The notes under the pieces: generated by a model
Told to the model about the DNA's origin: nothing
Database searches by the model: none
Seen by the model: the letters and a program-made list of their open reading frames with translations, nothing else
Program-made: the position numbers and the translations under genes
DNA from: an uncultured Chloroflexia bacterium
GTDB lineage: Bacteria > Chloroflexota > Dehalococcoidia > DSTF01 > JALHUB01
NCBI GenBank assembly: GCA_963726245.1
Contig: CAVSBT010000040.1
Span: 1 to 15,626, forward strand
Length of the DNA: 15,626 nt
Direction: 5' to 3'
Shown here: positions 1 to 15,626 of the stretch, one piece after another
Layout of the letters: each line of letters opens with the position of its first letter
How positions within the stretch are numbered: position 1 is the stretch's first letter

Positions 1-508
1 ACTGGAAGTTGACCTCCACGAAGTACTCCTCCAGGGCGGGCAGGTTCAGCGGCCGCAGCCCCGTCTCCCGCTCGATGGTCTGGAGGGTGCGCTCCACCTC
101 GGCCTCATCGTCGGAGGAGACGACGAACCACATGTTGTAGTGGTGGTCGCGTTCGTAGTTGTGGGAGATGGTGGGCAGGCGGCTGACGAGGGCCGCCACC
201 TCGTCGAAGCGCTCCGGCGGCACGTGGAGGGCGGCCAGGGTGCGTTCGCCGCCCATCTGGCGGGCGTTGAGGATGGGCCCGAAGCGGCTGAGGGCGCCCG
301 CCTTCACCAGATGTCGCAGCCGGAACAGCACCTCTTCCTCGCTCATGCCCAGGGCCTCGCCCAGGGCGGCGAAGGGCCGCGAGACGACGGGGAACCCGCC
401 CTGCGCGTGGTTCAGCAGGATGCGGTCGCGGCGGTCGAGCTGGACGGGAGCACCGGTCGCGGGGCGAGGGCGGCGTCGCCGGGGGTCCGGGCTGCCAGCG
501 CGGGCCAT
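1..508 (-). CDS. ahbA: Siroheme decarboxylase alpha-subunit-like protein (AhbA/NirD family, Lrp/AsnC fold); 3' end runs off the window
   Basis: Not in the ORF track; translated by hand from ATG at 508: MARAGSPDP...QLDRRDRILLNHAQGGFPVVSRPFAALGEALGMSEEEVLFRL...SRFGPILN...TLAALHVPPERFDEVAALV...ISHNYERDHHYNMWFVV...LNLPALEEYFVEVNFQ. The FP-x3-PF, HNY-x-R-x3-YN-x-WF and LPA motifs are typical of AhbA/NirD. Starts 3 nt after the stop of the radical SAM gene. Confidence 0.88.
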   Translation of the reverse strand, partial: MARAGSPDPRRRRPRPATGAPVQLDRRDRILLNHAQGGFPVVSRPFAALGEALGMSEEEVLFRLRHLVKAGALSRFGPILNARQMGGERTLAALHVPPERFDEVAALVSRLPTISHNYERDHHYNMWFVVSSDDEAEVERTLQTIERETGLRPLNLPALEEYFVEVNFQ

Positions 509-511
509 GCC

Positions 512-1780
512 CTAGCTCCTGCCGCCGGAGGGGACGGAGGTCCCGGTCGAGGGCGAAGGCGCCATCTCTTTCCAGGCGGGCGGCGCGTAGATGCAGTAGG
601 GCTCCGTCTCCATGTAATCGCCGGTGACGGCGAAGGCGCGGGCGCGGGAGCCTCCGCACACGTCCCGGAAGTCGCAGACGCCGCAGCGGCCCTTCAGCTT
701 CGTGTAGTCGCGAAGCTCCCGGAAGAGGGGCGAGTGGCGGTAGATCTCGACGAAGCTCTGGCGGCGGACGCTGCCGGCGGGGATCTGGAGGAAGCCGCTG
801 GGGCAGACCTCGCCGATGTGGCTGATGAAGGCGAAGCCGTTGCCGTCGTTGACCCCCTTCATGGTGGACTGGCCCAACCCTCCGGCGAAGCTGTAGCCGG
901 CGCCGGTGAGGTGCATGCTGCCGCCGGGGCCGGCCGCTACCTTCTCGCCGCGGGCCGCCGCCTCCGCCATCTCCTGGCGCCGGCGCTGGATGACCACCCG
1001 TCGGTAGTGCTGGGCGGCGGTGGTGCGCACGTCGAAGGGGGCGGTCTTCGCCAGGTCGTACATCCAGTTGAAGACACGCTCATGCTCCTCGGGCGAGATC
1101 ATGTCCTCGGCGGTGCCGCGGCCGGTGGGCACCAGGAAGAAGAAGTTGAGCATCACGGCGCCGTAGCGGGCGGCAATCTCGGCGATGGCGTCCAGCTCAT
1201 GGAGGCTGTAGCGGCTGACCGTGGTGCCGATCTGGAGGGACATGCCCAGGTCTCGCAGGTCGTCCATGATCTCCAGGGTGCGCTGGAAGGAGCCGGGGCT
1301 CTGGCGGAAGGCGTCGTGGCTATCCTGGGTGGCGCCGTCCAGGCTGATGTGAGTGCGGGTGACGCCGGCGTCGCGGGCCTTGCGCAGCCGCTCGCGGGTG
1401 ACGAGGGCCGTGGCGCTGGGCGCGAGCGCTACCCGCAGGCCGCGGTCTTTGGCGGCGTAGCTGACGAAGTCGAAGATGTCGCGTCGCATCATGGGGTCGC
1501 CGCCGGTGAGTACCAGGATGGGCCCACCGATCTCGGCAATCTGGTCGATGAGGCGGAAGCCCTCCTCGGTGGTCAGCTCACGCGGGTCGCGCTTGGGCTG
1601 GGCCTCGGCGCGGCAGTGGACGCACCGGAGGGCGCAGGCGCGGGTTATCTCCCAGGCGACGGTGAAGGGGGTGAGGTTGAAGTCGACATCGGCGACGGGC
1701 GGCTTCGGCGTGGTGCCGCGGTCGGCCGCGTCGGAGTGGCGCATGGTGGATTCGGCGGGTCGCGTCGTTTGGTGAGTCAT
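512..1780 (-). CDS. Radical SAM/SPASM protein of the heme-biosynthesis NirJ/AhbC/AhbD-related group (resembles the TIGR04053 type)
   Basis: WEITRACALRCVHCRA contains the CxxxCxxC motif; LTGGDP motif; C-terminal SPASM-like CPSGFL...CGVCDFRDVCGGSRARA...EPYC. Directly upstream of the ahbA-like gene. The start could instead be the ATG at 1744. Confidence 0.85.
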   Translation of the reverse strand: MTHQTTRPAESTMRHSDAADRGTTPKPPVADVDFNLTPFTVAWEITRACALRCVHCRAEAQPKRDPRELTTEEGFRLIDQIAEIGGPILVLTGGDPMMRRDIFDFVSYAAKDRGLRVALAPSATALVTRERLRKARDAGVTRTHISLDGATQDSHDAFRQSPGSFQRTLEIMDDLRDLGMSLQIGTTVSRYSLHELDAIAEIAARYGAVMLNFFFLVPTGRGTAEDMISPEEHERVFNWMYDLAKTAPFDVRTTAAQHYRRVVIQRRRQEMAEAAARGEKVAAGPGGSMHLTGAGYSFAGGLGQSTMKGVNDGNGFAFISHIGEVCPSGFLQIPAGSVRRQSFVEIYRHSPLFRELRDYTKLKGRCGVCDFRDVCGGSRARAFAVTGDYMETEPYCIYAPPAWKEMAPSPSTGTSVPSGGRS

Positions 1781-1841
1781 TTCCTCTTAATTATCAGGGG
1801 CGTCAACGTCAGCAAGGCAAGCCGGAGGGGAGAGGGAACAC

Positions 1842-1868
1842 GGGAACTGGGAACTGGGAACTGGAACT
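1842..1868 (+). repeat. Short tandem repeat (GGGAACT)x3 plus GGAACT in the intergenic region
   Basis: GGGAACT at 1842, 1849 and 1856, and GGAACT at 1863, read directly from the sequence. Confidence 0.8.
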
Positions 1869-1935
1869 GGGGGAGGGGTCCTGTTTCGTGTTCCTGATTC
1901 CTGTTCCTGGGGTGGGGTTGGGGCGGTGGGGTCGC

Positions 1936-2025
1936 TGGTGCCGGGGGCGGGGCTCGAACCCGCATGTCCCTCTCGGGACGGCGGATTTTAAGTCCGCTGC
2001 GTATGCCAGATTTCGCCACCCCGGC
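1936..2025 (-). tRNA. trnL: tRNA-Leu(TAA)
   Basis: Reverse complement GCCGGGGTGGCGAAATCTGGCATACGCAGCGGACTTAAAATCCGCCGTCCCGAGAGGGACATGCGGGTTCGAGCCCCGCCCCCGGCACCA. Anticodon arm GCGGA-CT-TAA-AA-TCCGC, long variable arm, GTTCGA T-loop, encoded CCA, no intron. Confidence 0.97.
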
Positions 2026-2041
2026 ACTCAAACCCGCCGTC

Positions 2042-2064
2042 GTAGCGGAGGGCTTCAGCCCTCC
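2042..2064 (+). repeat. GTAG-type REP-like palindrome
   Basis: GTAG-C-GGAGGGC-TTCA-GCCCTCC: a GTAG tetramer followed by a perfect 7-bp hairpin. Only one copy in this window. Confidence 0.45.
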
Positions 2065-2121
2065 ACCGCGAGGCACCCCTCTGGAGGCCCTAGGGCCACA
2101 CCACCTGGCGGCCAACCCCAC

Positions 2122-2159
2122 AGAAAGAACGGGCTCAGAACCGGAGGCGGTCCTGAGCC
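2122..2159 (-). terminator. Putative intrinsic terminator or processing hairpin after tRNA-Cys
   Basis: On the minus strand: GGCTCAGGACCG-CCTC-CGGTTCTGAGCC (12-bp stem with one G-U pair) followed by CGTTCTTTCT. Confidence 0.5.
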
Positions 2160-2171
2160 GGTAAGGTCGGG

Positions 2172-2246
2172 TGGAGGCGACGGCCGGATTCGAACCGGCG
2201 ATAGGGGTTTTGCAGACCCCCGCCTTAACCACTTGGCCACGTCGCC
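2172..2246 (-). tRNA. trnC: tRNA-Cys(GCA)
   Basis: Reverse complement GGCGACGTGGCCAAGTGGTTAAGGCGGGGGTCTGCAAAACCCCTATCGCCGGTTCGAATCCGGCCGTCGCCTCCA. Anticodon loop CT-GCA-AA, U73 discriminator, encoded CCA. Confidence 0.97.
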
Positions 2247-2247
2247 C

Positions 2248-2292
2248 TGGAGCGGAAGACGAGGTTCGAACTCGCGACCCCCTCCTTGGCAA
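2248..2292 (-). mobile_element. 3' half of tRNA-Gly(GCC) only; probable att site (displaced tRNA fragment) marking one end of an integrated element
   Basis: Reverse complement TTGCCAAGGAGGGGGTCGCGAGTTCGAACCTCGTCTTCCGCTCCA gives the anticodon loop, 3' anticodon stem, T arm, 3' acceptor strand and CCA. tRNA similarity stops exactly at the 5' edge of the 7-nt loop: the CCTCC needed to pair with GGAGG is absent. I found no 5' half elsewhere in the window. Confidence 0.8.
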
Positions 2293-2417
2293 TTAGCCCC
2301 CACCGCTGCAGGCTGCTTCCGAACCTGGGAAGACGGCCCGGCCTGTGCAAGCTGCTGGCAATTAGGGGGTCACGAGCCTCGCCAATTAGGTGGTCGGCTC
2401 TAGCCCACTCCGATGCC

Positions 2418-2686: not shown

Positions 2687-3562
2687 CTAGACGAACCCCT
2701 TCTCGGCGAGGAAGGAGAGCAGGTGATCGGCCAACACCGCGGGCGGCCCTTCGACCCGCGGTGAGGCGGTGCCGCTGAGGCCCCCCAAGACGACCGCCTC
2801 CCAGCGCTCCATCCCCGACAGTTCGCTATCGGGGACGAACAGGCCCCGCATGTCCGGCTTCGGTGGGCCGACGTCCAGTACTTGTACGCACGAGCCCCTA
2901 TCTCCCACCTCCTCCGGCGATAGTCCCAGCCGTTCGCAGTCCCAGCGCTGAATGTGCGCCCCCTGGGCTCGGAAGCGCTGGCGCAGCTGCGGATAGCGGA
3001 GGCGATCCACGCCCGGCTCCAGCGCCAAGACGGCAGGAAGAGGGCAGCGAATGACGGCGCGATAGCCCCGCTCCAGCTTCTGCTGCACCAAGAGGTCAGA
3101 CGCGCTGTCGGACTGCTCGAGATGCACGACGCCCGAGACCGTCGGCACGCCCATCAGCTCGCCGAGCTGGAGGGGCGTCTGGCCGGTGGCGCCGTCTGTC
3201 GCCTGGCGACCGCAAAGCACGAGGTCAGCGCCTAGCTCCTGTACGGCCCGCGAGAGGACACGCGCGGTCGCCAGGGTGTCGCCACCCTCGAAGGCGCGAT
3301 CCTCAAGGAGCACGGCCTCGTCGGCGCCCGCGGACAGGCAGTCGCGCAGGAACGGCTCGCACTCGGGCGAGCCCAGGCTCAGGGCGGTGACCCGCGTCCC
3401 GGGCAGGCGATCCCTGATCCGCAATGCCTCCTCCAGGGCACCCTGGTCGGCCGCATTCAGGCAGTAGCTCCGAGGCTGGTCATGGGGGTCCACCCTGCCA
3501 GATCGAATAACGGGGGCCAGGGCCAGATCGACCACCCTTGTCACGCAGACCGCGATCTTCAC
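2687..3562 (-). CDS. etfB: Electron transfer flavoprotein beta subunit (EtfB/FixA family)
   Basis: MKIAVCV start, LNAADQGALEEAL, GADEAVLL, GGDTLATARVL, DLVLCGRQATDGATGQ, LRYP motifs. Confidence 0.93.
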   Translation of the reverse strand: MKIAVCVTRVVDLALAPVIRSGRVDPHDQPRSYCLNAADQGALEEALRIRDRLPGTRVTALSLGSPECEPFLRDCLSAGADEAVLLEDRAFEGGDTLATARVLSRAVQELGADLVLCGRQATDGATGQTPLQLGELMGVPTVSGVVHLEQSDSASDLLVQQKLERGYRAVIRCPLPAVLALEPGVDRLRYPQLRQRFRAQGAHIQRWDCERLGLSPEEVGDRGSCVQVLDVGPPKPDMRGLFVPDSELSGMERWEAVVLGGLSGTASPRVEGPPAVLADHLLSFLAEKGFV

Positions 3563-3572
3563 CGCCGCCCCC

Positions 3573-4613
3573 TCACAACTGGGTGAGCATGTCGAGGGCC
3601 TCGCCGGGCGGGGGAGCCTTCGCCCTGGTCTCCCGCAGGCGGTCCACCACCGGACGCAGCACTTCGTGCACGTCGCCGACGATGGCTAGGTCAGCCAGGT
3701 CGAAGATGGGAGCGGTGCGGTCCGTATTGATGGCCACGATAGTCTTGGCGTCCCGCATACCCACAGTGTGGTGCGACGCGCCGGAGATGCCGCAGGCGAC
3801 GTACAAGCTGGGCGCCACGGTGCGTCCCGACTGACCCACCTGTCGATCATGGGGCACCCAGCCGGCGTCCACGGCCACCCGCGAGGCAGCCACGGCGCCC
3901 CCGAGAAGCGATGCCAACTCCACCAGCAGCTCGAAGCCCTCCCGGCCGCCGACGCCGCGGCCGCCCGCCACGACAACGTCGGCCTCCGCCAGGTCCATCG
4001 TGCGGGCGTCGCCCTGGATTACCCCCTGGACCGTGAAGCGCGGAGCGACGGCGCTGCACGGGGCCTCCACCCGGATCACCTGCGGCTGCCGGCCAGCCGC
4101 GCTGCGACCGGCGGCCGAAGGACGGGGCGCAAGGGTGGCCATCTGGGGCCGCGCTTCCGGGCAGACCACGGTACAGGAGGCCCGCCCCCCGTAGGCGGCA
4201 CGCGACATGCGCAGGAGCCCGTCGGGGCCGACGTTCAGTCCGGTGCAGTCGGATGCGAGGCCCGTCCCCAGGCGCGCCGCCACTCGCGACGCCAGGTCGC
4301 GGGCGAGGGCCGTCGTGCCGCAGAGGACGACGCTCGGCTCGTGCCTGCGAACAAGGTCGGTCAGGACGGCAACGCGGGTGTCGGTGTCGTGAAGAGGCGC
4401 ACCGCCAGCAGAGGCCACGAAGATGCGGGCCGCCCCCTGGGAGCCCAGGGCCCGGACCAGCTCGTCGTCACAGTCCCCGAGGACGACGGCGGCCGCCTCC
4501 ATGCCGAGCTGGCCGGCCAGCCGGGCTGCCTCGGCCATCAGGGAGACGACCGCTTCGGAGGACCTCCCCGAATGACCTTCGGCAACCGCCCAGACGGCCC
4601 CCTGGATACCCAT
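3573..4613 (-). CDS. etfA: Electron transfer flavoprotein alpha subunit (EtfA/FixB family)
   Basis: DLAEADVVVAGGRGVG, VAASRVAVDAGW, QVGQSGRTVAP, ACGISGASHHTVGM, AINTDRTAPIF motifs. ATG at 4613 has GGAG 5 nt upstream. Confidence 0.93.
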   Translation of the reverse strand: MGIQGAVWAVAEGHSGRSSEAVVSLMAEAARLAGQLGMEAAAVVLGDCDDELVRALGSQGAARIFVASAGGAPLHDTDTRVAVLTDLVRRHEPSVVLCGTTALARDLASRVAARLGTGLASDCTGLNVGPDGLLRMSRAAYGGRASCTVVCPEARPQMATLAPRPSAAGRSAAGRQPQVIRVEAPCSAVAPRFTVQGVIQGDARTMDLAEADVVVAGGRGVGGREGFELLVELASLLGGAVAASRVAVDAGWVPHDRQVGQSGRTVAPSLYVACGISGASHHTVGMRDAKTIVAINTDRTAPIFDLADLAIVGDVHEVLRPVVDRLRETRAKAPPPGEALDMLTQL

Positions 4614-4694
4614 GACCACTCCGGCCCCGCGCGTACCTGGTCGGGGCCCGTCCCGTGTTCTCCGGACGGGGACAGGTAGCGATCGCGGCCCCTG

Positions 4695-6653
4695 CTAGAC
4701 CATCCTGCCCACGCGGAGTCCATCGAGTGCCGAATCCAGCATCTTGCGGGGCGCCACGCACTGGCCGGCCGAGTACAGCTCGCGGACCTTGCCCTTGAGC
4801 GCCCGGTAGAGGCCGTCGTCGGCAACGCTGCCCCGCGCCACCACCACTGTGTCAACCTCCTCGATGGTCCTTCGCTGGCGCCCGTAGACACTGGAGACCG
4901 TCACTGTGCTGCCTTGGACGGACCTAATGTCCACGGCCGGGGTCACGACCACTCCCTTCGCCTGGAGCCGCATCAGGACCAGGGTGAGGGTGATGGGCTC
5001 GGTGGGAAACCCCATAAAGGCCTCGGGGACAAGGACCTCCACCTGGCTGCCACGTTCGGCCAGGAACTCGGCTGTGGTGAGGCTCTCCATGCCCCTGTCG
5101 GTGGCCAGCACGATGACCTTCCTGCCAGCCTCGGCCGTTCCTGAGAGCACGTCGCGGGCCGTTACGACGTTGGCCTGGTCGGCTCCCGGAAACGTCGGCC
5201 TAGCCGGAAGCCCGCCCGTTGCCACGATGACGGCGTCGGGGTTGTTGGCCAGGACGGTGCTTTCGTCGACCGGCGAGCCCAGGTTCACGTTGACGCCCAG
5301 GATTCTGAACTGCGTCTCGTAGTAGCGCACCGGCTCCGCCATGTCCTGCCGGCCCGGGGCCTTGGCCGCAATCTGAAGCTGTCCTCCCAGCACTTGCTCC
5401 CTTTCGTAGAGAGAGACAGTGTGGCCGCGGAGGGCCGCCACGCGCGCCGCCTCCATGCCGGCAATGCCCCCACCGATGACCATGACCTTCTTCTTCACCG
5501 GCGCGGGGACTATCTCCATCTCCTTCTCCCGGCCGGCGCTGGGGTTGATGGCGCAGGTGATGGGCAGCGTGTGGTGGATGCGTCCCCAGCATCCCTCGTT
5601 ACAGCCGATGCAGTAGCGGATCTCGTCCAGGCGTCCCTCGCGGGCTTTGTTCGGTAGCTCCGGGTCACAGAGGTTGGCGCGGGTCATGCCCACCATGTCC
5701 GCCTGGTTGTTGGCCAGGATGCGCTCCGCCGCCACGGGGTCGTTGACACGGCCGACGCAGAACACCGGGACACCCGCCACTTCCTTGATCCCGGCGGCCA
5801 GGTAGACGAAGGCGCCAGGGGGCAGGTACATGGGCGGTATGGGAGCACCACCGGCCCCGACCGTCACGCTCACGTAGTCCACCTTGCCGGAGCCGGTTAG
5901 CTGCGGCACGATGCGCTTCATGTCCTCCAGACCCAGGCCTCCGTCTTGGTACTGGTCGCCGCTGATACGCAGGCCAAGCGTGAAGTCGGAGCCGACCGCC
6001 GCCCGCACGGCGTCGATGACCTCCCGCACGAAGCGAGTCCGGTTCTCTTCGCTGCCCCCGTACTCGTCCTGGCGGTGGTTGGTGCGGGGCGACATGAACT
6101 GCTCGATGAGAAAGCCGTGGGTGCCCATGATCTCAACGCCGTCCAGCCCCGCCTCCCGCATCCGTCGCGCCGCCTCGCCGAACGACTGTACCAGCTCCCT
6201 GATCTCTTCCGGTTCCACGGCGTGGGAGGTCTCGACGTGGAAGGAACCCGGCAGCGCCGAACAGGACCAGAGGGGCAGGCTGCCCTCCCGCGCCTCGTAG
6301 AAGATGCTGCCCGGGTGCCAGAGCTGGGCCACGATCTTCGCTCCGTGCTCGTGGACGGCCGCTGTGATGCGCCGGAAGGGATCGATGCACTCGTCTCGGT
6401 AGGCCTGGATGACGAAGTGATCGGTGGCCGCCGACGGGTGAACAGCCTGGTCCTCGGTGACGATGAGGCCGATGCCACCCTTCGCTTTCGACACCCAGTA
6501 GTTCAGGTGCCGCTCGGAGGGAAGACCCCGGTCGGCGAAGCCGGTAAGGTGGGCCGTGCTGACGATCCGGTTTCGGACAGTGAACGAGCCGATCTTGAGG
6601 GGAGTGAAGAGGTGCTCGAACTGCGCATCTGTCGCCCCCGCTTCAGTGGTCAT
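4695..6653 (-). CDS. NADH:flavin oxidoreductase with OYE barrel, [4Fe-4S] cluster and FAD/NAD domain (FadH/TMADH/DgcA-like)
   Basis: RNRIVSTAH...KAKGGIGL, HGFLIEQFMSPRTNHRQDEYGGSEENR, Fe-S motif CIGCNEGC-x12-C(AINP), Rossmann VIGGGIAGMEAA. ATG at 6653 has GAAGGAG upstream. Confidence 0.9.
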   Translation of the reverse strand: MTTEAGATDAQFEHLFTPLKIGSFTVRNRIVSTAHLTGFADRGLPSERHLNYWVSKAKGGIGLIVTEDQAVHPSAATDHFVIQAYRDECIDPFRRITAAVHEHGAKIVAQLWHPGSIFYEAREGSLPLWSCSALPGSFHVETSHAVEPEEIRELVQSFGEAARRMREAGLDGVEIMGTHGFLIEQFMSPRTNHRQDEYGGSEENRTRFVREVIDAVRAAVGSDFTLGLRISGDQYQDGGLGLEDMKRIVPQLTGSGKVDYVSVTVGAGGAPIPPMYLPPGAFVYLAAGIKEVAGVPVFCVGRVNDPVAAERILANNQADMVGMTRANLCDPELPNKAREGRLDEIRYCIGCNEGCWGRIHHTLPITCAINPSAGREKEMEIVPAPVKKKVMVIGGGIAGMEAARVAALRGHTVSLYEREQVLGGQLQIAAKAPGRQDMAEPVRYYETQFRILGVNVNLGSPVDESTVLANNPDAVIVATGGLPARPTFPGADQANVVTARDVLSGTAEAGRKVIVLATDRGMESLTTAEFLAERGSQVEVLVPEAFMGFPTEPITLTLVLMRLQAKGVVVTPAVDIRSVQGSTVTVSSVYGRQRRTIEEVDTVVVARGSVADDGLYRALKGKVRELYSAGQCVAPRKMLDSALDGLRVGRMV

Positions 6654-6716
6654 GATTCTGCTCCTTCGGAGATGCACACGAAGGGCGTCGTAACGAAGCG
6701 GTGATCCGCGGCGCGC

Positions 6717-7301
6717 TCAGTCGTCACGAGGGACAAGACGCGCCCCGCGATTCACGACGAGGTCCTCCATCGCCTTCTCCAGCGGCACGTCCAGTGCGAC
6801 GGCCACCGTGCTCGTGTACCGCATCAGCGCTACCGATGCCACGATCTCGACGATCTCGGCGTCAGTCCAACCCACGGCCCGAAGCTCGTCGACCATCTCG
6901 TCGGTGACCGCTGCCGGCCGCCGCCCCACGACGCGGGCGAAATTCGCGGCTGCGTTCTCCTTGTCCGAGAGCCGCGGCGAGGGTTTGCCGTCGATAATCT
7001 CCAGACACTCATCCGTGCTCCAGTGCTTGCCGCGCAGGGCAATCATGTGGGCGGCGGTGCAGTACTGACACTCGACCTCGCAGGCCGTCACGACGAAAAA
7101 CACGCGCTTCAGCTCTTCGCGGATGCTGCCCTCCCGGACGGTAGCCTGGCTCAGCGTCCACAAGGCGTCCGTAGTCTCGGGAAGGTAGGCCAGCCCCTTT
7201 TGGAGACCGGGGACCATCCGGTAGTAGCCCTCGACTCTATCGAACACCTCCTTGGCCCTGCCTGTGGCCTTGTCTGGATCCAACAATGCTACGCGAGCCA
7301 T
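6717..7301 (-). CDS. AhpD/carboxymuconolactone decarboxylase-family (peroxidase-like) protein
   Basis: E-L-x9-E-C-Q-Y-C-x3-H (CxxC...H) AhpD core, plus LSDKENAA...LRAVGWTDAEIVEIV. ATG at 7301 has GGAGG upstream, giving 194 aa. Confidence 0.85.
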   Translation of the reverse strand: MARVALLDPDKATGRAKEVFDRVEGYYRMVPGLQKGLAYLPETTDALWTLSQATVREGSIREELKRVFFVVTACEVECQYCTAAHMIALRGKHWSTDECLEIIDGKPSPRLSDKENAAANFARVVGRRPAAVTDEMVDELRAVGWTDAEIVEIVASVALMRYTSTVAVALDVPLEKAMEDLVVNRGARLVPRDD

Positions 7302-7315
7302 TGGTGCCTCCTTGG

Positions 7316-8212
7316 CTAATTCGAATCGAGACTCCTGTTGTCTGGACCCATTTCGACGGGCAATTCCGGGTTTGCTCCCCATTCCATCCACGAGCCGTCA
7401 TACAGGCTGACGTTCTCGTAGCCCATGACGTACAGCACGAACAGATCGAAGGCGCCGTAGACACCTGCCCCGCAGTACGTGATCACTCTTTGATCGGGTT
7501 TGATGCCCACCTTTCGCCAGAGCGACGCCAGCTCGTCGGCCGCTAGCAGGGTCTGAGTGGTCTGGTCAACGTTGGCCGGCGCAGGCAGGTTCCGGGCCGT
7601 TGCGATGTGGCCTGTTCTGTGACTCGGGTAGAGCCGCGCCCTGCCGGCGTAGAAGGCTTTTGGCAGCGCATCGACGATGCACGTGTCGCGGCTTCCTATT
7701 GCCCGCAGCACCTCGTCGCAGGTAGCTCTGAGCGCGTGCCTGTTCCGCGCCCGGAAGGTCGCGGCGGCAGGGGCGGGCGTCCGCGTCTCCAGGGGACGGC
7801 CTTCAGCGATCCACTTGGTCAGGCCCCCATTCAGAACCCTCGCCGCGTCGTGCCCGTAGTAACGCAGGGCCCACCAGAGCCGGGCGGCCCAGGTCCCACC
7901 GCTGTCGTCATACACCACGGCCGTGCTGCCGCTTCCGATCCCCAGACGCCCCATCAGCGCCTCGAAACGGCCGGGCGACAGAATGCTGAGGGGGTCCTCC
8001 GGGTCCTCGAGATCGGATGTCGGATCCACGAACACCGCTCCCGGGATGTGGCCCTGCTGATACTCCTTCTTCCCCGGCACGCCCTGGAACGACCCGCCCG
8101 AGGCCGCCCGGACGTGATAGCGCATGTCCACCACGCGGACCGACGGATCGTCGAGGTGCGCGGCCAGCCACTCCGTCGTGGCTAGCGCTTCCGGGTGTTT
8201 GTACTCCGCCAC
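7316..8212 (-). CDS. Tandem-domain rhodanese / sulfurtransferase (SseA/TST/MST family)
   Basis: TTEWLAAHLDD, GHIPGAVF, AARLWWALRYYGH, LNGGL, active loop ITYCGAGVYG, C-terminal LYDGSWMEW signature. Confidence 0.93.
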   Translation of the reverse strand: MAEYKHPEALATTEWLAAHLDDPSVRVVDMRYHVRAASGGSFQGVPGKKEYQQGHIPGAVFVDPTSDLEDPEDPLSILSPGRFEALMGRLGIGSGSTAVVYDDSGGTWAARLWWALRYYGHDAARVLNGGLTKWIAEGRPLETRTPAPAAATFRARNRHALRATCDEVLRAIGSRDTCIVDALPKAFYAGRARLYPSHRTGHIATARNLPAPANVDQTTQTLLAADELASLWRKVGIKPDQRVITYCGAGVYGAFDLFVLYVMGYENVSLYDGSWMEWGANPELPVEMGPDNRSLDSN

Positions 8213-8214
8213 GC

Positions 8215-8874
8215 TCAGCGCCCCCTGCTTCGTTCGGATCTCGCCTCGCTGGCCCCCTGGTTTTCGGCCGTCAAGTAACCCGTGATCATGTCGACCATGG
8301 GGCCGAGGAACTCCTCGGGGTCCACTTTTTCCGGCTGCGTCTGTCGCTGAAGAACGAGGCCGTCGTTCACGGCGAGCAGGAGACGAGCGGCGCGATCCAC
8401 GTCCACGTCAGCGCGGACGAGGCCCGCGCGCTTCGCGCGGGAGAAGAACCGAGCGAGGGCGGCGGAACAGTGGTCGAAGAGCGCGGCAACCGCCTCGCGC
8501 GCCCACTCGTTGCGGCCTGCCAGCGCCCAGCACTCCATCAACAAGGGCGACCAGATGGGGTCCGTCCGGCACGTTGCCCAGGAGGCCTCCATGATGCGGA
8601 GGATGCTCTCGCGAAGTGGCAGATCGGGCTCGAGCCGGGCGGCGGTCTCTGCGGCCCGGCGGCGCACGTGCTCGAGGAGGATGGTGCGAAAGAGATCCTC
8701 CTTGCTGGCAAAGTGGCTATAGAGCGCTCCTTTGGCGATACCGCACTCGGCCGTGATCTCCTCCACGGTCGCTGCCTCGTAGCCCCGACGGCCGAAAACG
8801 CGGTAGGCCGCCTCCAGGATGCGGGCTCGTGTCTCCTCCTTGCGTTGCTGCGGTAGTGTCAGCACTCCTGCCAC
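8215..8874 (-). CDS. TetR/AcrR-family transcriptional regulator
   Basis: TRARILEAAYRVFGRRGYEAATVEEITAECGIAKGALYSHFASKEDLF helix-turn-helix. GTG start with AGGAGG upstream. Confidence 0.93.
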   Translation of the reverse strand: MAGVLTLPQQRKEETRARILEAAYRVFGRRGYEAATVEEITAECGIAKGALYSHFASKEDLFRTILLEHVRRRAAETAARLEPDLPLRESILRIMEASWATCRTDPIWSPLLMECWALAGRNEWAREAVAALFDHCSAALARFFSRAKRAGLVRADVDVDRAARLLLAVNDGLVLQRQTQPEKVDPEEFLGPMVDMITGYLTAENQGASEARSERSRGR

Positions 8875-8895
8875 TGGCCATCCTCCTCTAGGTAC

Positions 8896-8930
8896 ATGAC
8901 TGACCGGACGGTCATCGACTAGTCAGTCAT
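8896..8930. promoter_or_regulatory. Putative TetR operator made of nested palindromes
   Basis: ATGACTGAC (8896-8904) and GTCAGTCAT (8922-8930) form a perfect 9-bp inverted repeat. Inside are TGACCG-GA-CGGTCA (8901-8914) and GACTAGTC (8917-8924). The site overlaps the -10 and start region of the tetR promoter. Confidence 0.7.
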
Positions 8931-8957
8931 TCTAGGCGGGCCCGAGCGCACCGTCAA
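8929..8957 (-). promoter_or_regulatory. Sigma70 promoter for the tetR operon
   Basis: On the minus strand: TTGACG (8957-8952), 17-nt spacer, TAGAAT (8934-8929). Confidence 0.7.
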
Positions 8958-8984
8958 GACGCAGGCGGCCCGGCCACCGACCAC

Positions 8985-9013
8985 TTCCAGGGCTGGTGCC
9001 GTCGTGGTATAGT
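8985..9013 (+). promoter_or_regulatory. Sigma70 promoter for the MerB-like gene
   Basis: TTCCAG (8985-8990), 17-nt spacer, TATAGT (9008-9013), with extended -10 TG at 9005-9006. AGGAGGAG ribosome-binding site precedes ATG 9060. Confidence 0.6.
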
Positions 9014-9059
9014 CTGCAGCGCCAGGCCCAAAGGATTGACCTTGGAAAGGAGGAGCGCC

Positions 9060-9770
9060 ATGGCGGAACCGCAGCTTCTGGCAAGCATGTACCACGCGAT
9101 CATCAGCGGCATGGTTCGCGACGGCCGGGCTCCCCACTACGCGGAGCTGGCCACCGAGGTAGGCCTCTCCCCAGACGAGGCCCGCCAGGCGCTCCATGAC
9201 CTCGACGGAAGAGGCGTGCCGGGCTTCTGGGTTCGCTCGGGTACCGATCTCGTGGAGTCCTGCGCGCCCTTTTCGAACATTCCCACCCAGTACCGTATCA
9301 CCGTCGAGGGGCAGCAGAAATGGCACGGGCAGTGAGGGTTTGAGTCGCTAGCGGTCAGCTGGCTCTACCCCGGCAAGCAAGTACAGATAGACTGCCCCTG
9401 CCTCGACTGCAACGAGCCGATACGGGTGCGGATGCGGGACGGCGAGATCCTGGAAGCGTCCCCGGGCACCATCGTGGGCCACGTCAACGTGCCGTTCTCG
9501 CGCTGGCGCGAGGACATGGCCCGCGCCTGAAGCCTCATGAACCTCTTCCGGTCGGAAGAGCACGTGCGGAACTGGTCGCTGTACGACTCAGGGAGCAGCG
9601 ACGGGACTATGCCCCTTCGGGACTATGCCACCCTGTTTGGGACTGGGATGTTCCGCCAGCGGCTGGAGCCGGACTACGTGCTCCGGCTGCCGCAGCTCGC
9701 TGTCGAGTGGATGACCGCCCTGGCGAAGCTAGGGAAGACAGGGCCCTTCTGGCGGCTGGGTGGAACCTAA
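9060..9770 (+). CDS. MerB (organomercurial lyase)-like protein, predicted selenoprotein with two Sec residues (U92, U157), 236 aa
   Basis: One continuous frame from ATG 9060 to TAA 9768-9770, interrupted only by TGA 9333-9335 and TGA 9528-9530: MAEPQLL...GRAPHYAELATEVGLSPDEARQALHDL...CAPFSNIPTQYRITVEGQQKWHGQ-U-GFESLAVSWLYPGKQVQIDCPCLDCNEPIRVRMRDGEIL...GHVNVPFSRWREDMARA-U-SLMNLFRSEEHVRNW...FWRLGGT. N-terminal winged-helix-like segment, PFS-x2-PT motif, and both TGAs at MerB catalytic Cys positions, each followed by a hairpin. Confidence 0.85.
9336..9370 (+). promoter_or_regulatory. Putative bacterial SECIS element 1
   Basis: Immediately 3' of TGA 9333: stacked stems GGGT/ACCC, GAGTC/GGCTC and GCT/AGC, with CGGTC at the apex (9352-9356). 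Confidence 0.65.
9536..9566 (+). promoter_or_regulatory. Putative bacterial SECIS element 2
   Basis: 3' of TGA 9528: perfect 7-bp stem CTCTTCC (9543-9549), GGTC loop, GGAAGAG (9554-9560), with a lower stem CATG/CGTG. Confidence 0.75.
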
Positions 9771-10059
9771 CCGGACAGGAGCGGAGCCGCCGAAGACACC
9801 AAGGACGAGGGCCAGCCTCCGCGACCGTCCCCTTCGTGGTGTTAACCCGGCGTCCGCGTCTGCGCTATCCCGCAAGACTACCGAACCCGCGGGCCATGGC
9901 CGCAGGCATTAGTGGTGAAAGGCCGCGCTGACAGTCGTCAAAGCCGCTGGTGAACGCTGGTGGTCGGGCCGTGGACGGTCCGGGTCATGGAAGCGGGGTA
10001 TCCCCTCAGCGCGGCCGAGGGCCCATAGCTGCTCGCCGCGTCGCCCCAGCCAACGCCTG

Positions 10060-10162
10060 CCAGCGTTGAGGCGTCATGTCCTCTTGGGGTGCGACGCTAC
10101 GAACTCGGGTGGGTGGCTGCTCGAGGCGCGAAGACACGGGAACAGATGGCTGCAGTATTGGT
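10060..10162. repeat. Degenerate direct repeat, copy 2 (copy 1 at about 2550-2642)
   Basis: See copy 1. The shared 12-nt core CTCGGGTGGGTG is identical in both copies. Confidence 0.7.
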
Positions 10163-10360
10163 ACTCCCAATAGTCGTCATTTATAACTCTGGACTCAGCG
10201 CTCAGAGGCCTGTGGGGCACGCACAGGGTATCTCTGGCGATGGCCTGTGGCCTTCAGCACTGGCATGGCTGGCTCAGCGAGTTAAGGCCACAGGTGCGGA
10301 TGAGGTTTACTCACCCCTAGCCCTTGCAGAAGTTGAACTTGGGCTTTGGCCTCATCGGGC

Positions 10361-10582
10361 TCACGCATCATCCGTTGTGCCCTGTCCGGCATCTTGTTCA
10401 GCCGGAGGTTCGCCGCCGGGCCGTATGTCAGTCGCGCCCCGTCGGTCTCGATCGGCGGCCAACTCTGCCTCAATGTGCTGGCGTGTTGCTTGTTGCTCTG
10501 CCTGCGTTTGCGGCGTCAAGCCAAGCGTCGGCTCGGCGGCCGGCTTCTTTCTGTGACCAAACAGACGCTTGAAGAACATCAT
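10361..10582 (-). CDS. Small hypothetical protein (73 aa)
   Basis: MMFFKRLFGHRKKPAAEPTLGLTPQTQAEQQATRQHIEAELAADRDRRG...; GGAGG lies 6 nt upstream of the ATG; same strand as the upstream GH94 gene. No family recognised. Confidence 0.5.
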   Translation of the reverse strand: MMFFKRLFGHRKKPAAEPTLGLTPQTQAEQQATRQHIEAELAADRDRRGATDIRPGGEPPAEQDAGQGTTDDA

Positions 10583-10794
10583 CTGAACCCTCCGATCTCC
10601 TGTCGTCATATCCTGACTCCGCTCGTAACCCGCACCGCCGCAGCAGGGCGTAGACCTGCGGTTAAGAATTGTGGCATCAGTGTCAACGTCTTGTCTGAGC
10701 TGTGGTAGGCCAAGCAGCGGCCAGCTCTTCCTCGCTGCCGGCGGCCACCTCGCTTATTTGTATCGCGGGCAACTCGCGGCCGTGGCCAGCAAGT

Positions 10795-13700
10795 CTATTG
10801 GGGCGGCAGGCTGCCCGTGGGCGGAGGCTCGGCTATGGAAGGCCTGCTGTCGTCCGCCCAGCCGGTCACGACCTCGACCGTGTGCGCCTGGCGGTCGTCG
10901 ACGAGCCGGATCGACCTCTCGTTCTGCGCAATGCCGTCAACGACGAGGCGCACTCCATCACCCGCGCTCGCTCGTCGAACGGTGATCGCGTAGGTCGTCT
11001 CCCGGTAGCGGTAGCTAAGGGTGAACGACTGCCAGTCGGGCGGCAGGCAGGGCGTGAAAGAGAGCCGGTCCACCTCCAAGCGAAGGCCGAGCAGCGACTC
11101 GACGATCAGCCGGTACATCCAGCCGGCGGCACCCGTGTACCAAGTCCAGCCGCCTGCGCCCGTATGCGGCGGCAGCGCGTAGACATCGGCCGCGACGATG
11201 TACGGCTCCACGCGATAGGTCGCCGCCTTCTCCGCGCTCGACGCGTGGTTGAGTGGGCTGATCAGCGAGAGCAGTTCCCAGGCGCGGCGGCTGTCGCCCA
11301 GCGCCGCGAAGGCCATGACCACCCAGATCGCGGCGTGCGTGTACTGGCCGCCATTCTCCCTCACGCCCGGCGGATACCCCTTGATGTATCCGGGGTTCAG
11401 GTCGGACTTGTCAAACGGCGGGTCGAGGAGCTGGATGAGGGCCTGATCGCGCCGGACGAGCAGCCGGTCGACCGACTCCATCGCGATGCGTGCGCGGCGC
11501 AGGTCGCCGGCGCCGGAGATCACAGACCAGCTCTGGGGTATCGAGTCGATCCGGCACTCCGGGCTGCTGGCAGAGCCGAGGGGCTTGCCGCTGTCGAAGT
11601 AGGCGCGGAGGTACCGGTCGCCGTCCCAGGCACGCATCTCGGCGGCGCGGCAGAGCGCAGCGGCCTCCGACTCTGACCGCTCGGCTAGGGCAGCGTCACC
11701 GTGGAGCCGCGCGACCTCGGCAAACTGTGCGAGCACGTGGTGGAGGAAGAACGCCAGCCAGACACTCTCGCCCTGGCCGCCCCGGCCGACCAAGTTCATA
11801 CCGTCGTTCCAATCGCCGGAGCCGATCAGCGGCAGCCCGTGCCGGCCGAGCCGCGTCCCCCGCTCGATCGCCCGGACGCAGTGCTCGTAGAGCGTGCCCG
11901 CCTCCTCGGACGATGCGGGCAGGTCGTAGTAGGAGTCCTCGTCCGGGTTGAGCGGCCGCCCCTCGATGTAGGCGACGCGCTCGTCGAGGACGCCGGTGTC
12001 GCCCGTGGCGAGGACATAGCGGGCCGTCGCCAGGGGCAGCCAGAGCAAGTCATCGGAGCAGCGAGTCCGCACGCCGCGCCCGGTCGGCGGGTGCCACCAG
12101 TGCTGGACGTCCCCCTCGCGGAACTGGCGGGCCGCGCAGCGCAGCAGATGCTCGCGGATGAGCAGCGGTTGGGCGTGGAGAAGCGCCATCACGTCCTGGA
12201 GTTGGTCGCGGAAGCCGAAGGCGCCGCCCGACTGGTAGAAGCCGGTCCGCGCCCAGAGGCGGCAAGCGATCGCCTGATAGAGGAGCCAGCCATTGGCGAG
12301 GATGTTGACAGTCGGCTCCGGCGTCTCGACGCGGACGGCGCCGAGGATGCGTTCCCAGTGCGCCTCGACCGCCTCCAGCGCCGCGTGCGCGGGGCCGGGG
12401 CCGCGGAAGCGCCGCACCAGGTCGCGCGCCTCCTCCTCGTCGCGCCCGACGCCGAGGACGAAGACGATCTCCCGCTCCTCGCCGTCGGCCAGGTCGACCT
12501 GGACCTGCAGCGCGGCGCAGGGGTCCAGCCCGGCGCCAACACGGCCCGATAGGCGGGCGCGCGTCATCGCGGCGGGTTGGCCGGGCAGGCCGTTGCGGCC
12601 GAGGAACTCGGTGCGGTCGCAGGTAACGGTGCGGGTCGCCTCGTCCACGTCGAAGAAGGCGACGCGGCCGGGGAAGTCGCCGTTGTAGGGGTTGCGGGCG
12701 AAGACGGCGCCGCTGTTCGGGTCGATCTCGGTGACGACGTGGAGGAGCGACTTTGCCCGCTGCTCGCCGAGCACCCACTCAACGTAGCCCGTCGCCGAGA
12801 GGCGGCGCGCCCGGCCCGACTCGTTGCGAAGCGTAAGCGCCATCAGCTTCACCGACGCGTCGAGCGCGACGTACTCGGCCAACTCGGAGGTCACGCCGGC
12901 CTCCGCGTGCTCGAACACCGTGTAGCCGAAGCCGTGGCGGCAGGTGTAGGTGGTGGCGCCGCGGGCCGGTAGCGGCGTTGGCGACCAGTAGCGACCGGTC
13001 TCCTCGTCGCGAATGTAGAAGGCCTCGCCGCTGGCGTCGGTCACCGGGTCGTTGTACCAGGGCGTGAGACGCTGCTCGTGGGCGTTCTCGCCCCAGGTGT
13101 AGGCACCGCCGCTCTCCGTGATCACGGTGCCGAACTGTGGGTTCGCCAGCACGTTCGCCCAGGGCGCGGGCGTCGTCTCGCCGGGCCGCAGGGTGACGAC
13201 GTACTCGCGCCCGTCAAGCGTGAAGCCGCCGAGGCCGTTCGAAAGCACGAGGTCGCGGCTAGGGAGCTCGACGGCGCGCTCGGGCTCTGGCACGACGTCC
13301 TCCGCTGGCGCGAGCGCTGGCACCGCTTGCTCGACGCGGCGTCCCCGCTCGATCTGCTCGGCGAGCGTCCCGGCGCTGTCGATGATCACAACGCGGGCGA
13401 CGGTCTGCTGAAGGATCCTGTCCTCCTCCGACATCTGGTCGGCGTGCCGGACGAAGATGCCGCCCGGCCGGTCGATGACGTGCGACTCCGGTTCCGGCGG
13501 CGACGAGCCCCAGGATCTCCTCGTGCAGCTCCTGGCGGTAGCCGGACGGCTCCTCGTTCCAGATGACGAGGTCGACTGCGAGCCCGGTGAGACGCCAGTA
13601 CGCATGCGCCTGGACGAGCTGCCGCACGAGCTCGATCTTCGTTCGGTCGCTGATGCGCAGGAGGACGATGGGCAAGTCGCCGGAGATGCCGAAGCCCCAG

Positions 13701-15626
13701 AGGCCTGACTGCGCGCGCCGGTTGCGGGCGAGGACGTTCGCCGGGGCACGGCGGCCCGCGTTGGCGTAGACGATCGAGCTGGCGAGACGGCCGTAGAGCT
13801 GGGCGTCGGACTCGGTCGCGCCGAGCTGGCGGAGGACCACCTGCCGATGGGTCGTCGCCAAATCGAAGACGCGGTTGGCCAGGCGCCGGTCGTGGTACTT
13901 GCCGGCGAGCGCCATCGCCGCCTCGCGTGTCTCGCCGACGCCGGTCACCACATTCACCCAGACCGTCTCATCCGGACCTACCGTAACCTGGCGGCGAACC
14001 GAGACGATAGGATCAAGCACGGGCCCCTGGCTGTCGGAAAGGCCGGCGCCGTCCGCCATCGCCTTCGGGTCGGCGAGCGACCGGCCGCGCCCGATGAAGC
14101 GCAGCCGGTCCGTCTCGAACGACGCCTCCCCGATGGAGGTCGTCTCGCCGGCGTCCATCAAATGGACCATCCAGGGGGTCGACTCGCTGGGTGAGCGCGG
14201 CCGCCGCGAGCAGAGGATCGCGTCGTGCGAAGGGACGATCTCCGTCTGGACGAAGAGGTTGCTGAGGGCCGGGTGGGTGGCGTCGGCGGGCGGCGGCGCC
14301 ATCACCACCTCCGCATAGCTCGTCACCTCAATCGTCCGCCGCGTGCGCGAGCGGTTCGTTATCCTGATGCGCCTGATCTCGACGTCGTCCTGTGGCGAGA
14401 CGGCGATCTCGGTGTGCGTGTCGATGTCGCCATCGCGGCGCCGGTACTCGGCGCGCGCTTGGGAGAAGATCGCGTTGTAGGTCTTCGGCTGCTTGAGCAT
14501 CGGCTGGTAGGCCGCGGACCAGACCTCGCCGGTCGTCAGGTCGCGGAGGTAGCAGAACGTGCCGTAGCAGTCGCGTGTCGCGTCCTCCTGCCAGCGTGTG
14601 ACCGCGAGGTCGCGCCAACGGCTATAGCCGCCCCCGGCGTTGGTCACCATAATGCTGTAGCTGCCGTTGGAGAGCAGGTGCACCTCCGGCGAGCCGGAGT
14701 TGGGGTTGTTGAAGATGCGGAGGAGCGCCTGGTACTCGCCGGCGCGCTGCTGCAGGCCGGACGTCTCGGCGGCGTTTGGATAGAAGGGAGCGACCTTCGG
14801 CACGCGCTCCTGTAGCAGCATCTCTGTCGCCCGGAAGAGCGGCTCGGAGAGGAAGCGGCGCTGCATCGGCCTGCCGAGGAGCGTGTAGGCGAGGGAGAGG
14901 AAGCTCATACCCTCGTGATGTGGCATGAACGACCGCACGAGCGCGAACGCCGCGCCTCGCGGCTGCCGCGAGGGCGTGTAGTCGATCGCCTCGTAGAGGC
15001 CGTACCGGCCCTCCGCGCCGAGGTCGACGAGCCGCTTAAGGTTCGCGCACGCCTGTTCCGGCGCGACCATCAGCGCCATCGCCGTCGCGTAGGGTGCCAC
15101 GACCAGGTCCTCGGCGAGGCCACGCTTGAAGCCGAGGCCCGGCACGCCGAAGGCGCGGTACTGGTACCTGAGGTAGGCGTCCGTCGTATTGTAGCCGGAC
15201 TCGGAGATACCCCAGGGGACACCCCGCTGGGCGCCGTACTGGATTTGGCGCCGGACGACGGCCTTGTAGGTTCGGTCAAGCACGGTGTCCTCGTAGGTCG
15301 GCATGACGATGAGCGGCATCAGGTACTCGAACATGGAGCCGCCCCAGGAGAGGAGGGCAGGATCGGCGCCGGAGGTCGTACGAGGCGACCGAGGGCGAAC
15401 CAGTACTCCTGCGACAGTTGGTGTTGCGCGATGGCGACGAAGGTGGCGAGGCGCGCCTCTGAGGCCAGCAGGTCGTAATAGCTCGGGTCGCGCCGCCGCT
15501 CGGCGATGTCGTAGCCGATGACGAACAGGTGACGCGACTGGTCCGTCAGGAAGTCGTAGTCCATGTCGGCCAGTTCGTTGCAGAGCTGGCCGAGCCGTCG
15601 ATCGCCTCCAACCGGTCAGCCGCGCG
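10795..15626 (-). pseudogene. ndvB: C-terminal part of an NdvB/Cgs-like cyclic beta-1,2-glucan synthase-family protein with GH94 phosphorylase domains; frameshifted near 15598, 15380 and 13489 (pseudogene or sequencing errors); 5' end outside the window
   Basis: SYYDLLASEARL, (W)[83 protein letters not shown] and GGWTWYTG motifs are spread over ORFs 15319-15564, 13259-15334 and 10795-13749, which join through single-base shifts. Confidence 0.85.

Follow-up and report, generated by a model that had tools for sequence, protein, structure and literature searches.

A gene at positions 9060-9770 (plus strand, 236 codons) of a 15,626-nt stretch of DNA from an uncultured Dehalococcoidia bacterium (contig CAVSBT010000040.1, the whole stretch being referred to here as the window) encodes a protein resembling the organomercurial lyase MerB, with two in-frame TGA codons at the places of both MerB metal-ligand cysteines. 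Conservation of these codons and of the hairpins that follow them argues that both are genuine selenocysteine (Sec) codons. Members of a Dehalococcoidia-type clade retain the gene next to genes for an Fe-S flavoenzyme of the old yellow enzyme (OYE) type, similar to 2-naphthoyl-coenzyme A (CoA) reductase (NCR) and FadH, and for an electron transfer flavoprotein (ETF) of the CarDE/EtfAB type. Our favored explanation, to which we would assign a probability of roughly 0.45, is that the Sec/Glu/Sec protein cleaves a bond between carbon and a soft heteroatom by MerB-type protonolysis, coupled in this clade to the ETF-dependent NCR/FadH-like reductase, with a cassette of TetR, rhodanese and AhpD genes as an optional addition. 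In such a mechanism, for which mercury is the precedent and other metal(loid)s, selenium or a halogen are possible, Glu95 would act as the proton donor and the leaving atom would be held between two selenolates. The OYE and ETF would provide the redox side, either reducing a released unsaturated or aryl acyl-CoA-type product or supplying low-potential electrons. The cassette would be an optional insert between the OYE and MerB-like genes, autoregulated by TetR through a palindrome at its own promoter, and could conceivably assist in clearing a Se-bound product.

Two TGA codons at the MerB metal-ligand positions

The two plus-strand TGA codons, codon 92 (9333-9335) and codon 157 (9528-9530), fall at the first and second metal-ligand cysteine of MerB, respectively. 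We sampled the best 80 of 463 related loci in species-representative genomes, mostly from Desulfobacterota and Chloroflexi, and 78 of these have TGA at both sites; the other two (L024 and L039) have TGY at site 1 and TGA at site 2, leaving codon 157 as TGA in all 80. The same two TGAs are preserved with an intact frame across several phyla, and they lie on positions where homologues carry Cys, which bears out the first-pass annotation of this gene as a Sec gene. Gene callers either split the gene into three pieces (~91, 63 and 77 aa) or take TGA for Trp, and both outcomes are visible in the databases. In our alignment A1 (25 sequences), 11 full-length database homologues have Trp at both sites because the gene caller read TGA as Trp, 11 others have Cys at site 1 and end just before site 2, and P0031 and P0059 have Cys at both; database homologues often end at site 2, with lengths of 155-161 aa. 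Many of the entries P0002-P0024 are full-length, come from one public source and show Trp at both Sec positions, apparently because the two in-frame TGAs led the caller to adopt a TGA=Trp code for short contigs. A profile search against 1.84 billion representatives returned 1,453 relatives (473 at E ≤ 1e-10), often fragments that end at profile position 91 or ~155 or that cover 94-156 or 160-234; among the matches listed with at least 195 aa (n = 35), 32 have Cys at both sites and 33 have Cys at site 1. That the gene is a pseudogene, or that TGA encodes an ordinary amino acid in this organism, would agree with the Trp pairs that one public caller produced in many short contigs, but we reject it with hardly any residual doubt, as TGA is the ordinary stop codon of the neighboring EtfA, AhpD and TetR genes, in-frame TGAs are absent from the nine other window genes checked, and both TGAs, their hairpins and the frame are conserved over several phyla. 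Dehalococcoidia genomes with 46-49 selenoproteins are recorded in BSepDB, according to the passages of its description that we drew on (PMC13326102).

Each UGA is probably decoded with the help of a hairpin resembling a selenocysteine insertion sequence (SECIS) that starts 11-12 nt downstream. Hairpin 1 (9347-9363, plus strand, GCUAGC-GGUCA-GCUGGC) places its loop 17 nt after UGA 92 and hairpin 2 (9543-9560, plus strand, CUCUUCC-GGUC-GGAAGAG) places its loop 19 nt after UGA 157, both within the 16-37 nt range that the relevant passage of a published account gives for bacterial SECIS loops (PMC10778597). We aligned the hairpins of the window and of every locus in which a motif search placed them, minus one duplicate (L008), which yielded 75 sequences at site 1 and 71 at site 2, the search having missed 5 and 9 loci, respectively. 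At sites 1 and 2, respectively, 99.1% and 97.2% of the stem cells are paired, sliding the partner strand lowers pairing to 11-60%, and G22 and U23 in the loop of hairpin 1 are invariant. The GGUC loop appears similar to that of the E. coli fdhF element. A stronger argument than covariation comes from constraint on synonymous sites, which we assessed in 78 genes after excluding the duplicate L008 and the partial genes L016 and L022. Hairpin codons are nearly fixed in their synonymous choice, with R164 as CGG in 77/77, S165 as TCG in 78/78, L162 as CTC in 71/73 and S96 as TCG in 70/72, and normalized codon entropy drops from 0.84 in 76 other conserved codons to 0.61 for hairpin 1 and 0.24 for hairpin 2 (Mann-Whitney p = 5e-4). 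At its gathering threshold, Rfam reported only two tRNAs in the window and no SECIS family.

The predicted protein exceeds the cut-off of the Pfam MerB family (PF03243; 70.9 bits vs 27), and for an AlphaFold2 model built from a 42-sequence alignment (predicted local distance difference test score 93.8), all 11 Foldseek matches in the PDB at E ≤ 0.001 are MerB or MerB2, with template modeling (TM) scores of 0.49-0.68. The fold in common with MerB and MerB2 (3f0o, 3f0p and 5c17) includes the N-terminal helical domain and the C-terminal helices, and the same three active-site positions hold two chalcogen ligands and an acidic or polar residue. In the alignment to MerB2 5c17 (E = 4.9e-7), U92 and U157 fall on both cysteines and E95 on the residue three after the first cysteine, a serine in MerB2. 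The E95 position is that of Asp99 in E. coli MerB, using the mapping of Haft & Gwadz (bioRxiv 10.1101/2022.07.06.499078), and Sec92, Glu95 and Sec157 thereby occupy the places of MerB Cys96, Asp99 and Cys159. These three MerB residues are described as strictly conserved in the parts of two studies that treat them (Christakis 2021, PMC8261052; Haft & Gwadz), and the Sec, Glu and Sec found here place the window protein outside a strict Cys/Asp/Cys definition. Its identity to MerB and MerB2 is 12-22%, no merA/R/T/P genes are nearby, and its setting is chromosomal, in uncultured anaerobes. Among the 42 aligned members, the invariant residues are Q91-U92, E95, P113-C114-L-D-C117, U157, F163, S165 and H168; of the C114-x-x-C117 pair, C114 aligns with a cysteine also present in MerB2 and C117 alone is new. 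On the NCBIfam MerB models, the window protein reaches neither cut-off (23.2 bits vs 193 and 21.4 vs 200), and all 42 aligned members score weakly, with a best E-value of 3.5e-12.

The closest known parallel in selenium usage is SaoL, which, in the passages that describe it, belongs to the same PF03243 fold family, carries Sec at the MerB Cys159 position, occurs in anaerobes without a mer operon and has database entries truncated at UGA, as is the case for the family studied here. According to the same passages, SaoL has a single Sec in a CU dipeptide ~50 residues from its C-terminus, retains Cys99 and Asp102, and is the marker of a nine-gene SAO locus with an ABC transporter and an efflux pump, whereas the window protein has two Sec residues, Glu in place of Asp, the extra CxxC and an A-R-A-U-S sequence with Ala before the second Sec, and its gene adjoins the OYE and ETF genes. 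None of the SAO-locus families named there (ABC transporter, efflux pump and others) was detected among the window genes in Pfam and NCBIfam scans, and the SaoL model NF040728 matches the window protein over residues 63-144 only, at 39.1 bits vs a cut-off of 140. By these comparisons, the family is neither MerB proper nor SaoL, and it is uncurated. The MerB-like selenoproteins treated in the pertinent sections of two reviews (PMC9312934 and PMC13188914) and of Haft & Gwadz are SaoL alone, with its CU motif and one Sec. A passage search of the BSepDB paper (PMC13326102) found no mention of MerB, and a search of the full-text literature, with subscription journals and supplements outside its reach, did not turn up any account of a MerB homologue with two Sec residues.

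A flavoenzyme and EtfAB as recurrent neighbors

In the window, which has a G+C content of ~68%, the plus-strand MerB-like gene and six minus-strand genes make up a seven-gene set. The minus-strand run ends with the genes for the OYE-type Fe-S flavoenzyme (4695-6677; 660 aa; Pfam Oxidored_FMN and Pyr_redox_2; probable start at ATG 6653, preceded by a ribosome-binding site), EtfA (ETF alpha, the large subunit; 3573-4619; 348 aa; Pfam ETF and ETF_alpha; alternative ATG at 4613, likewise preceded by a ribosome-binding site) and EtfB (ETF beta, the small subunit; 2687-3562; 291 aa; Pfam ETF 118.7 bits), and every domain call in all seven proteins exceeds its Pfam gathering score. With the annotated starts, the intergenic gaps from TetR to EtfB are 2, 14, 39, 75 and 10 nt, and starts at ATGs 6653 and 4613 turn the gaps of 39 and 75 nt into 63 and 81 nt. 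The first-pass description of six closely spaced, co-oriented genes with gaps of 2-81 nt, sharing a 185-nt region (8875-9059) with the divergent MerB-like gene, agrees with these coordinates. We found no internal minus-strand promoter or credible terminator within the six-gene run, which makes a single transcription unit plausible. No open reading frame (ORF) scanned in the window matched merA, merR, merT or merP, the OYE reaching only 43 bits vs a cut-off of 454 on the MerA model through a 138-residue C-terminal Pyr_redox_2 stretch of the FAD/NAD type, and the claim that this is not a classical mer operon stands.

By tblastn of the window proteins against the 80 loci, the OYE gene was found in 12 (L001-L009, L011, L013 and L014), EtfA in 13 (only weakly in L024 and L041) and EtfB in 12. 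All 12 OYE-positive loci fall within the 17 loci closest to the window (68-83% identity), which are labeled Dehalococcoidia or Chloroflexi except for L004 (Acidobacteriota); of the five OYE-negative loci in this group, L012, L015, L016 and L022 are on short contigs or cut by a contig end and L010 has full flanks. When 1,239 ORFs located within 7 kb were clustered without bias, OYE came from 13 sources (window included), EtfB from 12 and EtfA from 11, followed by acyl-CoA dehydrogenases (10) and molybdopterin oxidoreductases (8), with pieces of the MerB-like gene itself ranking above all of these. The trio occurs in three arrangements: OYE-EtfA-EtfB divergent from the MerB-like gene (window, L002 and L003); OYE divergent with EtfA-EtfB downstream on the strand of the MerB-like gene, ~65-90 nt after it (the seven loci L004-L009 and L011); and OYE convergent, followed by EtfA-EtfB (L013 and L014). 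In all three, the flanks beyond the OYE, Etf and MerB-like genes differ. OYE is thus the one recurrent neighbor, with EtfAB nearly as frequent, and the earlier proposal of a seven-gene system is partly supported: the OYE and EtfAB portion recurs, with OYE in 12 of the 17 closest loci and in three gene orders, whereas rhodanese and CMD genes do so in only 2 of the 80.

Acyl-CoA dehydrogenases are a weak hint of a further partner, as several of the 10 loci share synteny and the distances vary; in L009 and L011, an AcrC-like acyl-CoA dehydrogenase (8593-9909, minus strand) separates the OYE gene from the MerB-like gene, a place taken in the window by the cassette. We rejected the molybdopterin oxidoreductases of eight loci as a second partner because they are heterogeneous, comprising a dimethyl sulfoxide reductase of type II in L003, Sec-type formate dehydrogenases in L053 and L070, and further members without an assignment. 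The formate dehydrogenase alpha ORFs of those two loci (L053 4248-5900 and L070 4613-6235) begin at model position ~133-135, past the usual Sec codon, which points to a second selenoprotein gene near the MerB-like gene in these loci.

The best PDB matches of the OYE are 2-naphthoyl-CoA reductase (6qkg, 6e-102) and FadH (1ps9, 5e-91), both full-length over the flavin mononucleotide barrel, the 4Fe-4S motif with its invariant cysteines (C356-x2-C359-x3-C363...C375) and the FAD-type domain, and histamine and trimethylamine dehydrogenases are more distant. Its sequence LATDRG aligns to the FadH NADPH motif GCGGIG, so that, like NCR, it lacks the GxGxxG of FadH at the NADPH site, which suggests that it would need an external redox partner. 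The best NCBIfam model was the mycofactocin-associated OYE_2 (TIGR03997), whose cut-off of 793 bits was not reached (684.8 bits), and no mycofactocin genes were seen in the window ORFs scanned. EtfA matches CarE best (6fah, 2.9e-75), then 7koe, 5ol2 and 4kpu, with human 1efv behind at 7.9e-45, and EtfB matches CarD (6fah_B, 1.6e-34) and 4kpu_B; together they are nearest to CarE/CarD, to the EtfAB of Thermotoga, Clostridioides and Acidaminococcus and to LctBC, with human 1efv and Paracoccus 1efp more distant. The group of 6fah, 7koe, 5ol2 and 4kpu consists of electron-bifurcating complexes, and the window EtfAB may likewise bifurcate electrons. The likeness is to CarCDE (6fah) and Bcd-EtfAB (5ol2), but the ETF partner here would be an NCR/FadH-like OYE rather than an acyl-CoA dehydrogenase. 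Trimethylamine dehydrogenase-ETF (1o94/1o95) appears in both the OYE and the ETF match lists and offers a solved precedent (1o94) for an OYE-type Fe-S flavoprotein docking an ETF, and by this analogy the suggested exchange of electrons between the Fe-S flavoenzyme and ETF gains support.

Several observations weigh against a MerB-type protonolysis coupled to OYE and ETF. All 12 positive loci come from one clade (68-83% identity), and shared ancestry is therefore not fully excluded as the source of the synteny. OYE is absent from all 63 loci of 49-60% identity, and any ETF occurs in only two of them, so the partnership is a lineage-specific rather than a family-wide property; the MerB-like enzyme clearly works without the OYE/ETF module elsewhere. 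The TetR, rhodanese and AhpD genes stand beside the MerB-like gene in only 2 of the 80 loci. The MerB-like gene has no conserved neighbor encoding a CoA ligase, CoA transferase or transporter, and the neighborhood thus gives no pointer to the substrate. With regard to the Sec codons, the Sec-insertion genes (selA/selB/selC/selD) lie outside the window, whose tRNAs are Leu and Cys, and the nearly invariant stems leave little room for covariation, with two compensatory cells at site 2 (matched by 5-14 of 500 shuffles) and none at site 1; the support for the hairpins is conservation with minimal covariation. Finally, Hg(II) held by two selenolates would be very hard to release, which argues against simple mercury detoxification.

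The main rival explanation is a stand-alone MerB-like selenoprotein, for example a high-affinity organomercurial/methylmercury lyase of anaerobes, with OYE-EtfAB as an independent acyl-/aryl-CoA reductase that is syntenic by chance in one Dehalococcoidia clade. It would account for the 63 distant loci, most of them without any recurrent neighbor, for L010, where the MerB-like gene has neither OYE nor ETF within full 10-kb flanks, and for the MerB-like catalytic geometry. Chance synteny fits poorly with a trio that persists through three gene orders though all flanks differ, with the close same-strand EtfA-EtfB of seven loci, and with a 7.5-kb duplicated unit bounded exactly by OYE and just past EtfB (described below). 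We consider this explanation unlikely, although it deserves more weight than any of the other rivals.

The accessory cassette and the window flanks

The three remaining minus-strand genes encode a TetR-family regulator (8215-8874; 219 aa; TetR_N 68.5 bits and TetR_C_6 49.7 bits), a two-domain rhodanese (7316-8212; 298 aa; Rhodanese 108.5 bits in two stretches) and an AhpD/CMD-family protein (6717-7301; CMD domain), the last with an ATG at 7301 preceded by AAGGAGG and a longest ORF that reaches 7391. The regulator reaches no NCBIfam equivalog cut-off. The rhodanese is 3-mercaptopyruvate-sulfurtransferase-like, with the active-site loop CGAGV (NF008557, 164 bits vs a cut-off of 250), and the AhpD-like protein carries the motif C-Q-Y-C-x-x-x-H (CQYC) and scores 29.3 bits on CMD vs a cut-off of 23 and 74.2 bits on TIGR01926, under the cut-off of 81.8. 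The window is 85% identical in nucleotide sequence to L002 over 2701-6666 and 84% over 8979-9752, and the segment between (6667-8978), which holds AhpD, rhodanese, TetR and the candidate operator, is missing from L002 and matches L007 at 83.5%. This distribution identifies TetR-rhodanese-AhpD as an accessory insert at the junction of the OYE and MerB-like genes, and we regard it as a probable insertable 2.3-kb cassette, seen in the window and one other genome. In that other genome, a metagenome-assembled one, a single chromosome has two copies of a 7,488-bp segment (5509-12995 in each of L007 and L008) that share 99.9% identity and lie ~1.5 Mb from each other. The segment runs from the OYE stop codon to ~320 nt past EtfB and contains exactly OYE, AhpD, rhodanese, TetR, the MerB-like gene, EtfA and EtfB. 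The repeat reflects either recent duplication or mobility, or an assembly artefact, and in this genome the seven genes behave as one unit.

In the 185-nt region, a perfect inverted repeat (ATGACTGAC/GTCAGTCAT, 8896-8904 and 8922-8930, 17 nt apart) is a candidate TetR operator. Its 3′ arm is overlapped by a sigma-70-like promoter of the TetR operon (TTGACG-17-TAGAAT, 8929-8957, minus strand) with 10 of 12 consensus matches, the one promoter-like site found where 0.2 were expected. The repeat core TGACTGACCGGACGGTCAT is identical in L007 and L008, where both promoter hexamers are also conserved. The TetR-proximal half of 8875-9059 is conserved with these loci, and the MerB-proximal half is not, with a 34-nt indel. 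A conserved repeat at the minus-strand promoter fits control by TetR of its own operon through the palindrome.

The first-pass annotation had tentatively combined all seven genes in one pathway, in which the lyase would break a carbon-heteroatom bond, rhodanese would act as carrier of S or Se, AhpD could restore the Sec pair to its reduced state, and the flavoenzyme and ETF would exchange electrons; in the full form of this pathway, TetR would control both transcription units. The cassette does occupy the identical OYE/MerB-like junction in two genomes with different ETF arrangements, and other thiol, persulfide or Cys-rich redox proteins flank the MerB-like gene in L001 (DUF1847), L004 (C_GCAxxG_C_C), L006 (HdrA-like), L007 (CCG-domain), L008 and L013. 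In the last two, these are fusions of a CoA-disulfide-reductase-like protein with a C-terminal rhodanese (L008 3156-5213, minus strand; L013 5860-7629, plus strand), a persulfide/polysulfide-reductase architecture found <5 kb from the MerB-like gene; L013 has, in addition, a catalase directly upstream. We regard such neighbors as a suggestive theme and not as a conserved feature. Both sampled loci with the cassette belong to one genome, L002 lacks it although its OYE-ETF and MerB-like genes are 84-85% identical in nucleotide sequence, and the conserved candidate operator overlaps the minus-strand promoter only, next to non-conserved MerB-proximal DNA, and the full pathway accordingly seems to us quite improbable.

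The genes on either side have no relation to the cluster. On the left, a siroheme-decarboxylase-like protein of the NirDL/AhbAB type (2-508, minus strand) and a radical SAM/SPASM protein (512-1780, minus strand) look like a pair from the alternative (Ahb) heme biosynthesis pathway, typical of anaerobes. Just downstream of EtfB lie tRNA-Leu(UAA) (1936-2025, minus strand) and tRNA-Cys(GCA) (2172-2246, minus strand); an 87-90 nt tRNA considered as a candidate tRNA-Sec proved to be this tRNA-Leu(UAA), and the ORFs 1888-2403 (plus strand) and 1777-2292 (minus strand), which overlie the two tRNAs, were rejected as spurious. On the right, the ~1 kb that separates the MerB-like gene from the GH94 genes (9771-10794) contains no recognizable gene and no Rfam match, its ORFs 10089-10556 (plus strand), 10346-10708 (plus strand) and 10361-10609 (minus strand) having no Pfam match. 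Two GH94-family ORFs follow on the minus strand, 10795-13749 (glycoamylase and supersandwich domains) and 13259-15625 (supersandwich and catalytic domains), and their ~490-nt overlap in different frames could mean that a frameshift is present or that the start of the downstream ORF has been called too far out.

Chemistry of the Sec pair and meaning for the family

The Sec pair might alternatively be a redox centre and not a metal site, acting in the reductive removal of a soft substituent, such as deiodinase-like dehalogenation or deselenation, with a Se-Se bond that would need low-potential electrons from ETF and the C114xxC117 dithiol. A simple metal-binding site would not usually have Sec at both ligand positions, all 42 aligned members retain the CxxC, the ETF is nearest to the CarDE, EtfAB and LctBC types, and the hosts are Dehalococcoidia and Desulfobacterota. 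However, MerB2 shares the C114-equivalent cysteine, and no reductive-dehalogenase or corrinoid genes are nearby; we hold this explanation to be about as improbable as the full seven-gene pathway.

Returning to MerB-type protonolysis by a Sec/Glu/Sec protein, selenium at both ligand positions alters which chemistry is plausible, allowing tighter binding of soft atoms and possibly a Se-Se redox cycle. As far as the consulted portions of the literature extend, the known MerB-like selenoproteins consist of SaoL only, with one Sec, and the two-Sec form is new. Surveys that require Cys96/Asp99/Cys159 would miss the gene because callers fragment it or misread TGA. Anaerobic lineages that produce methylmercury often contain the family, and in their habitats the mer-free breakdown of methylmercury is unexplained. 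We speculate, as a long shot, that this widespread, uncatalogued two-Sec MerB-type enzyme may be the demethylase or dealkylase still missing from accounts of mer-independent breakdown of methylmercury or other organometal(loid)s in anoxic sediments, and that in Dehalococcoidia it is wired to an ETF-dependent low-potential reductase. If so, organometal(loid) cleavage would be part of energy or carbon metabolism and not of resistance. In Dehalococcoidia, the conserved OYE-EtfAB partnership offers a testable handle on the physiological role of the enzyme.

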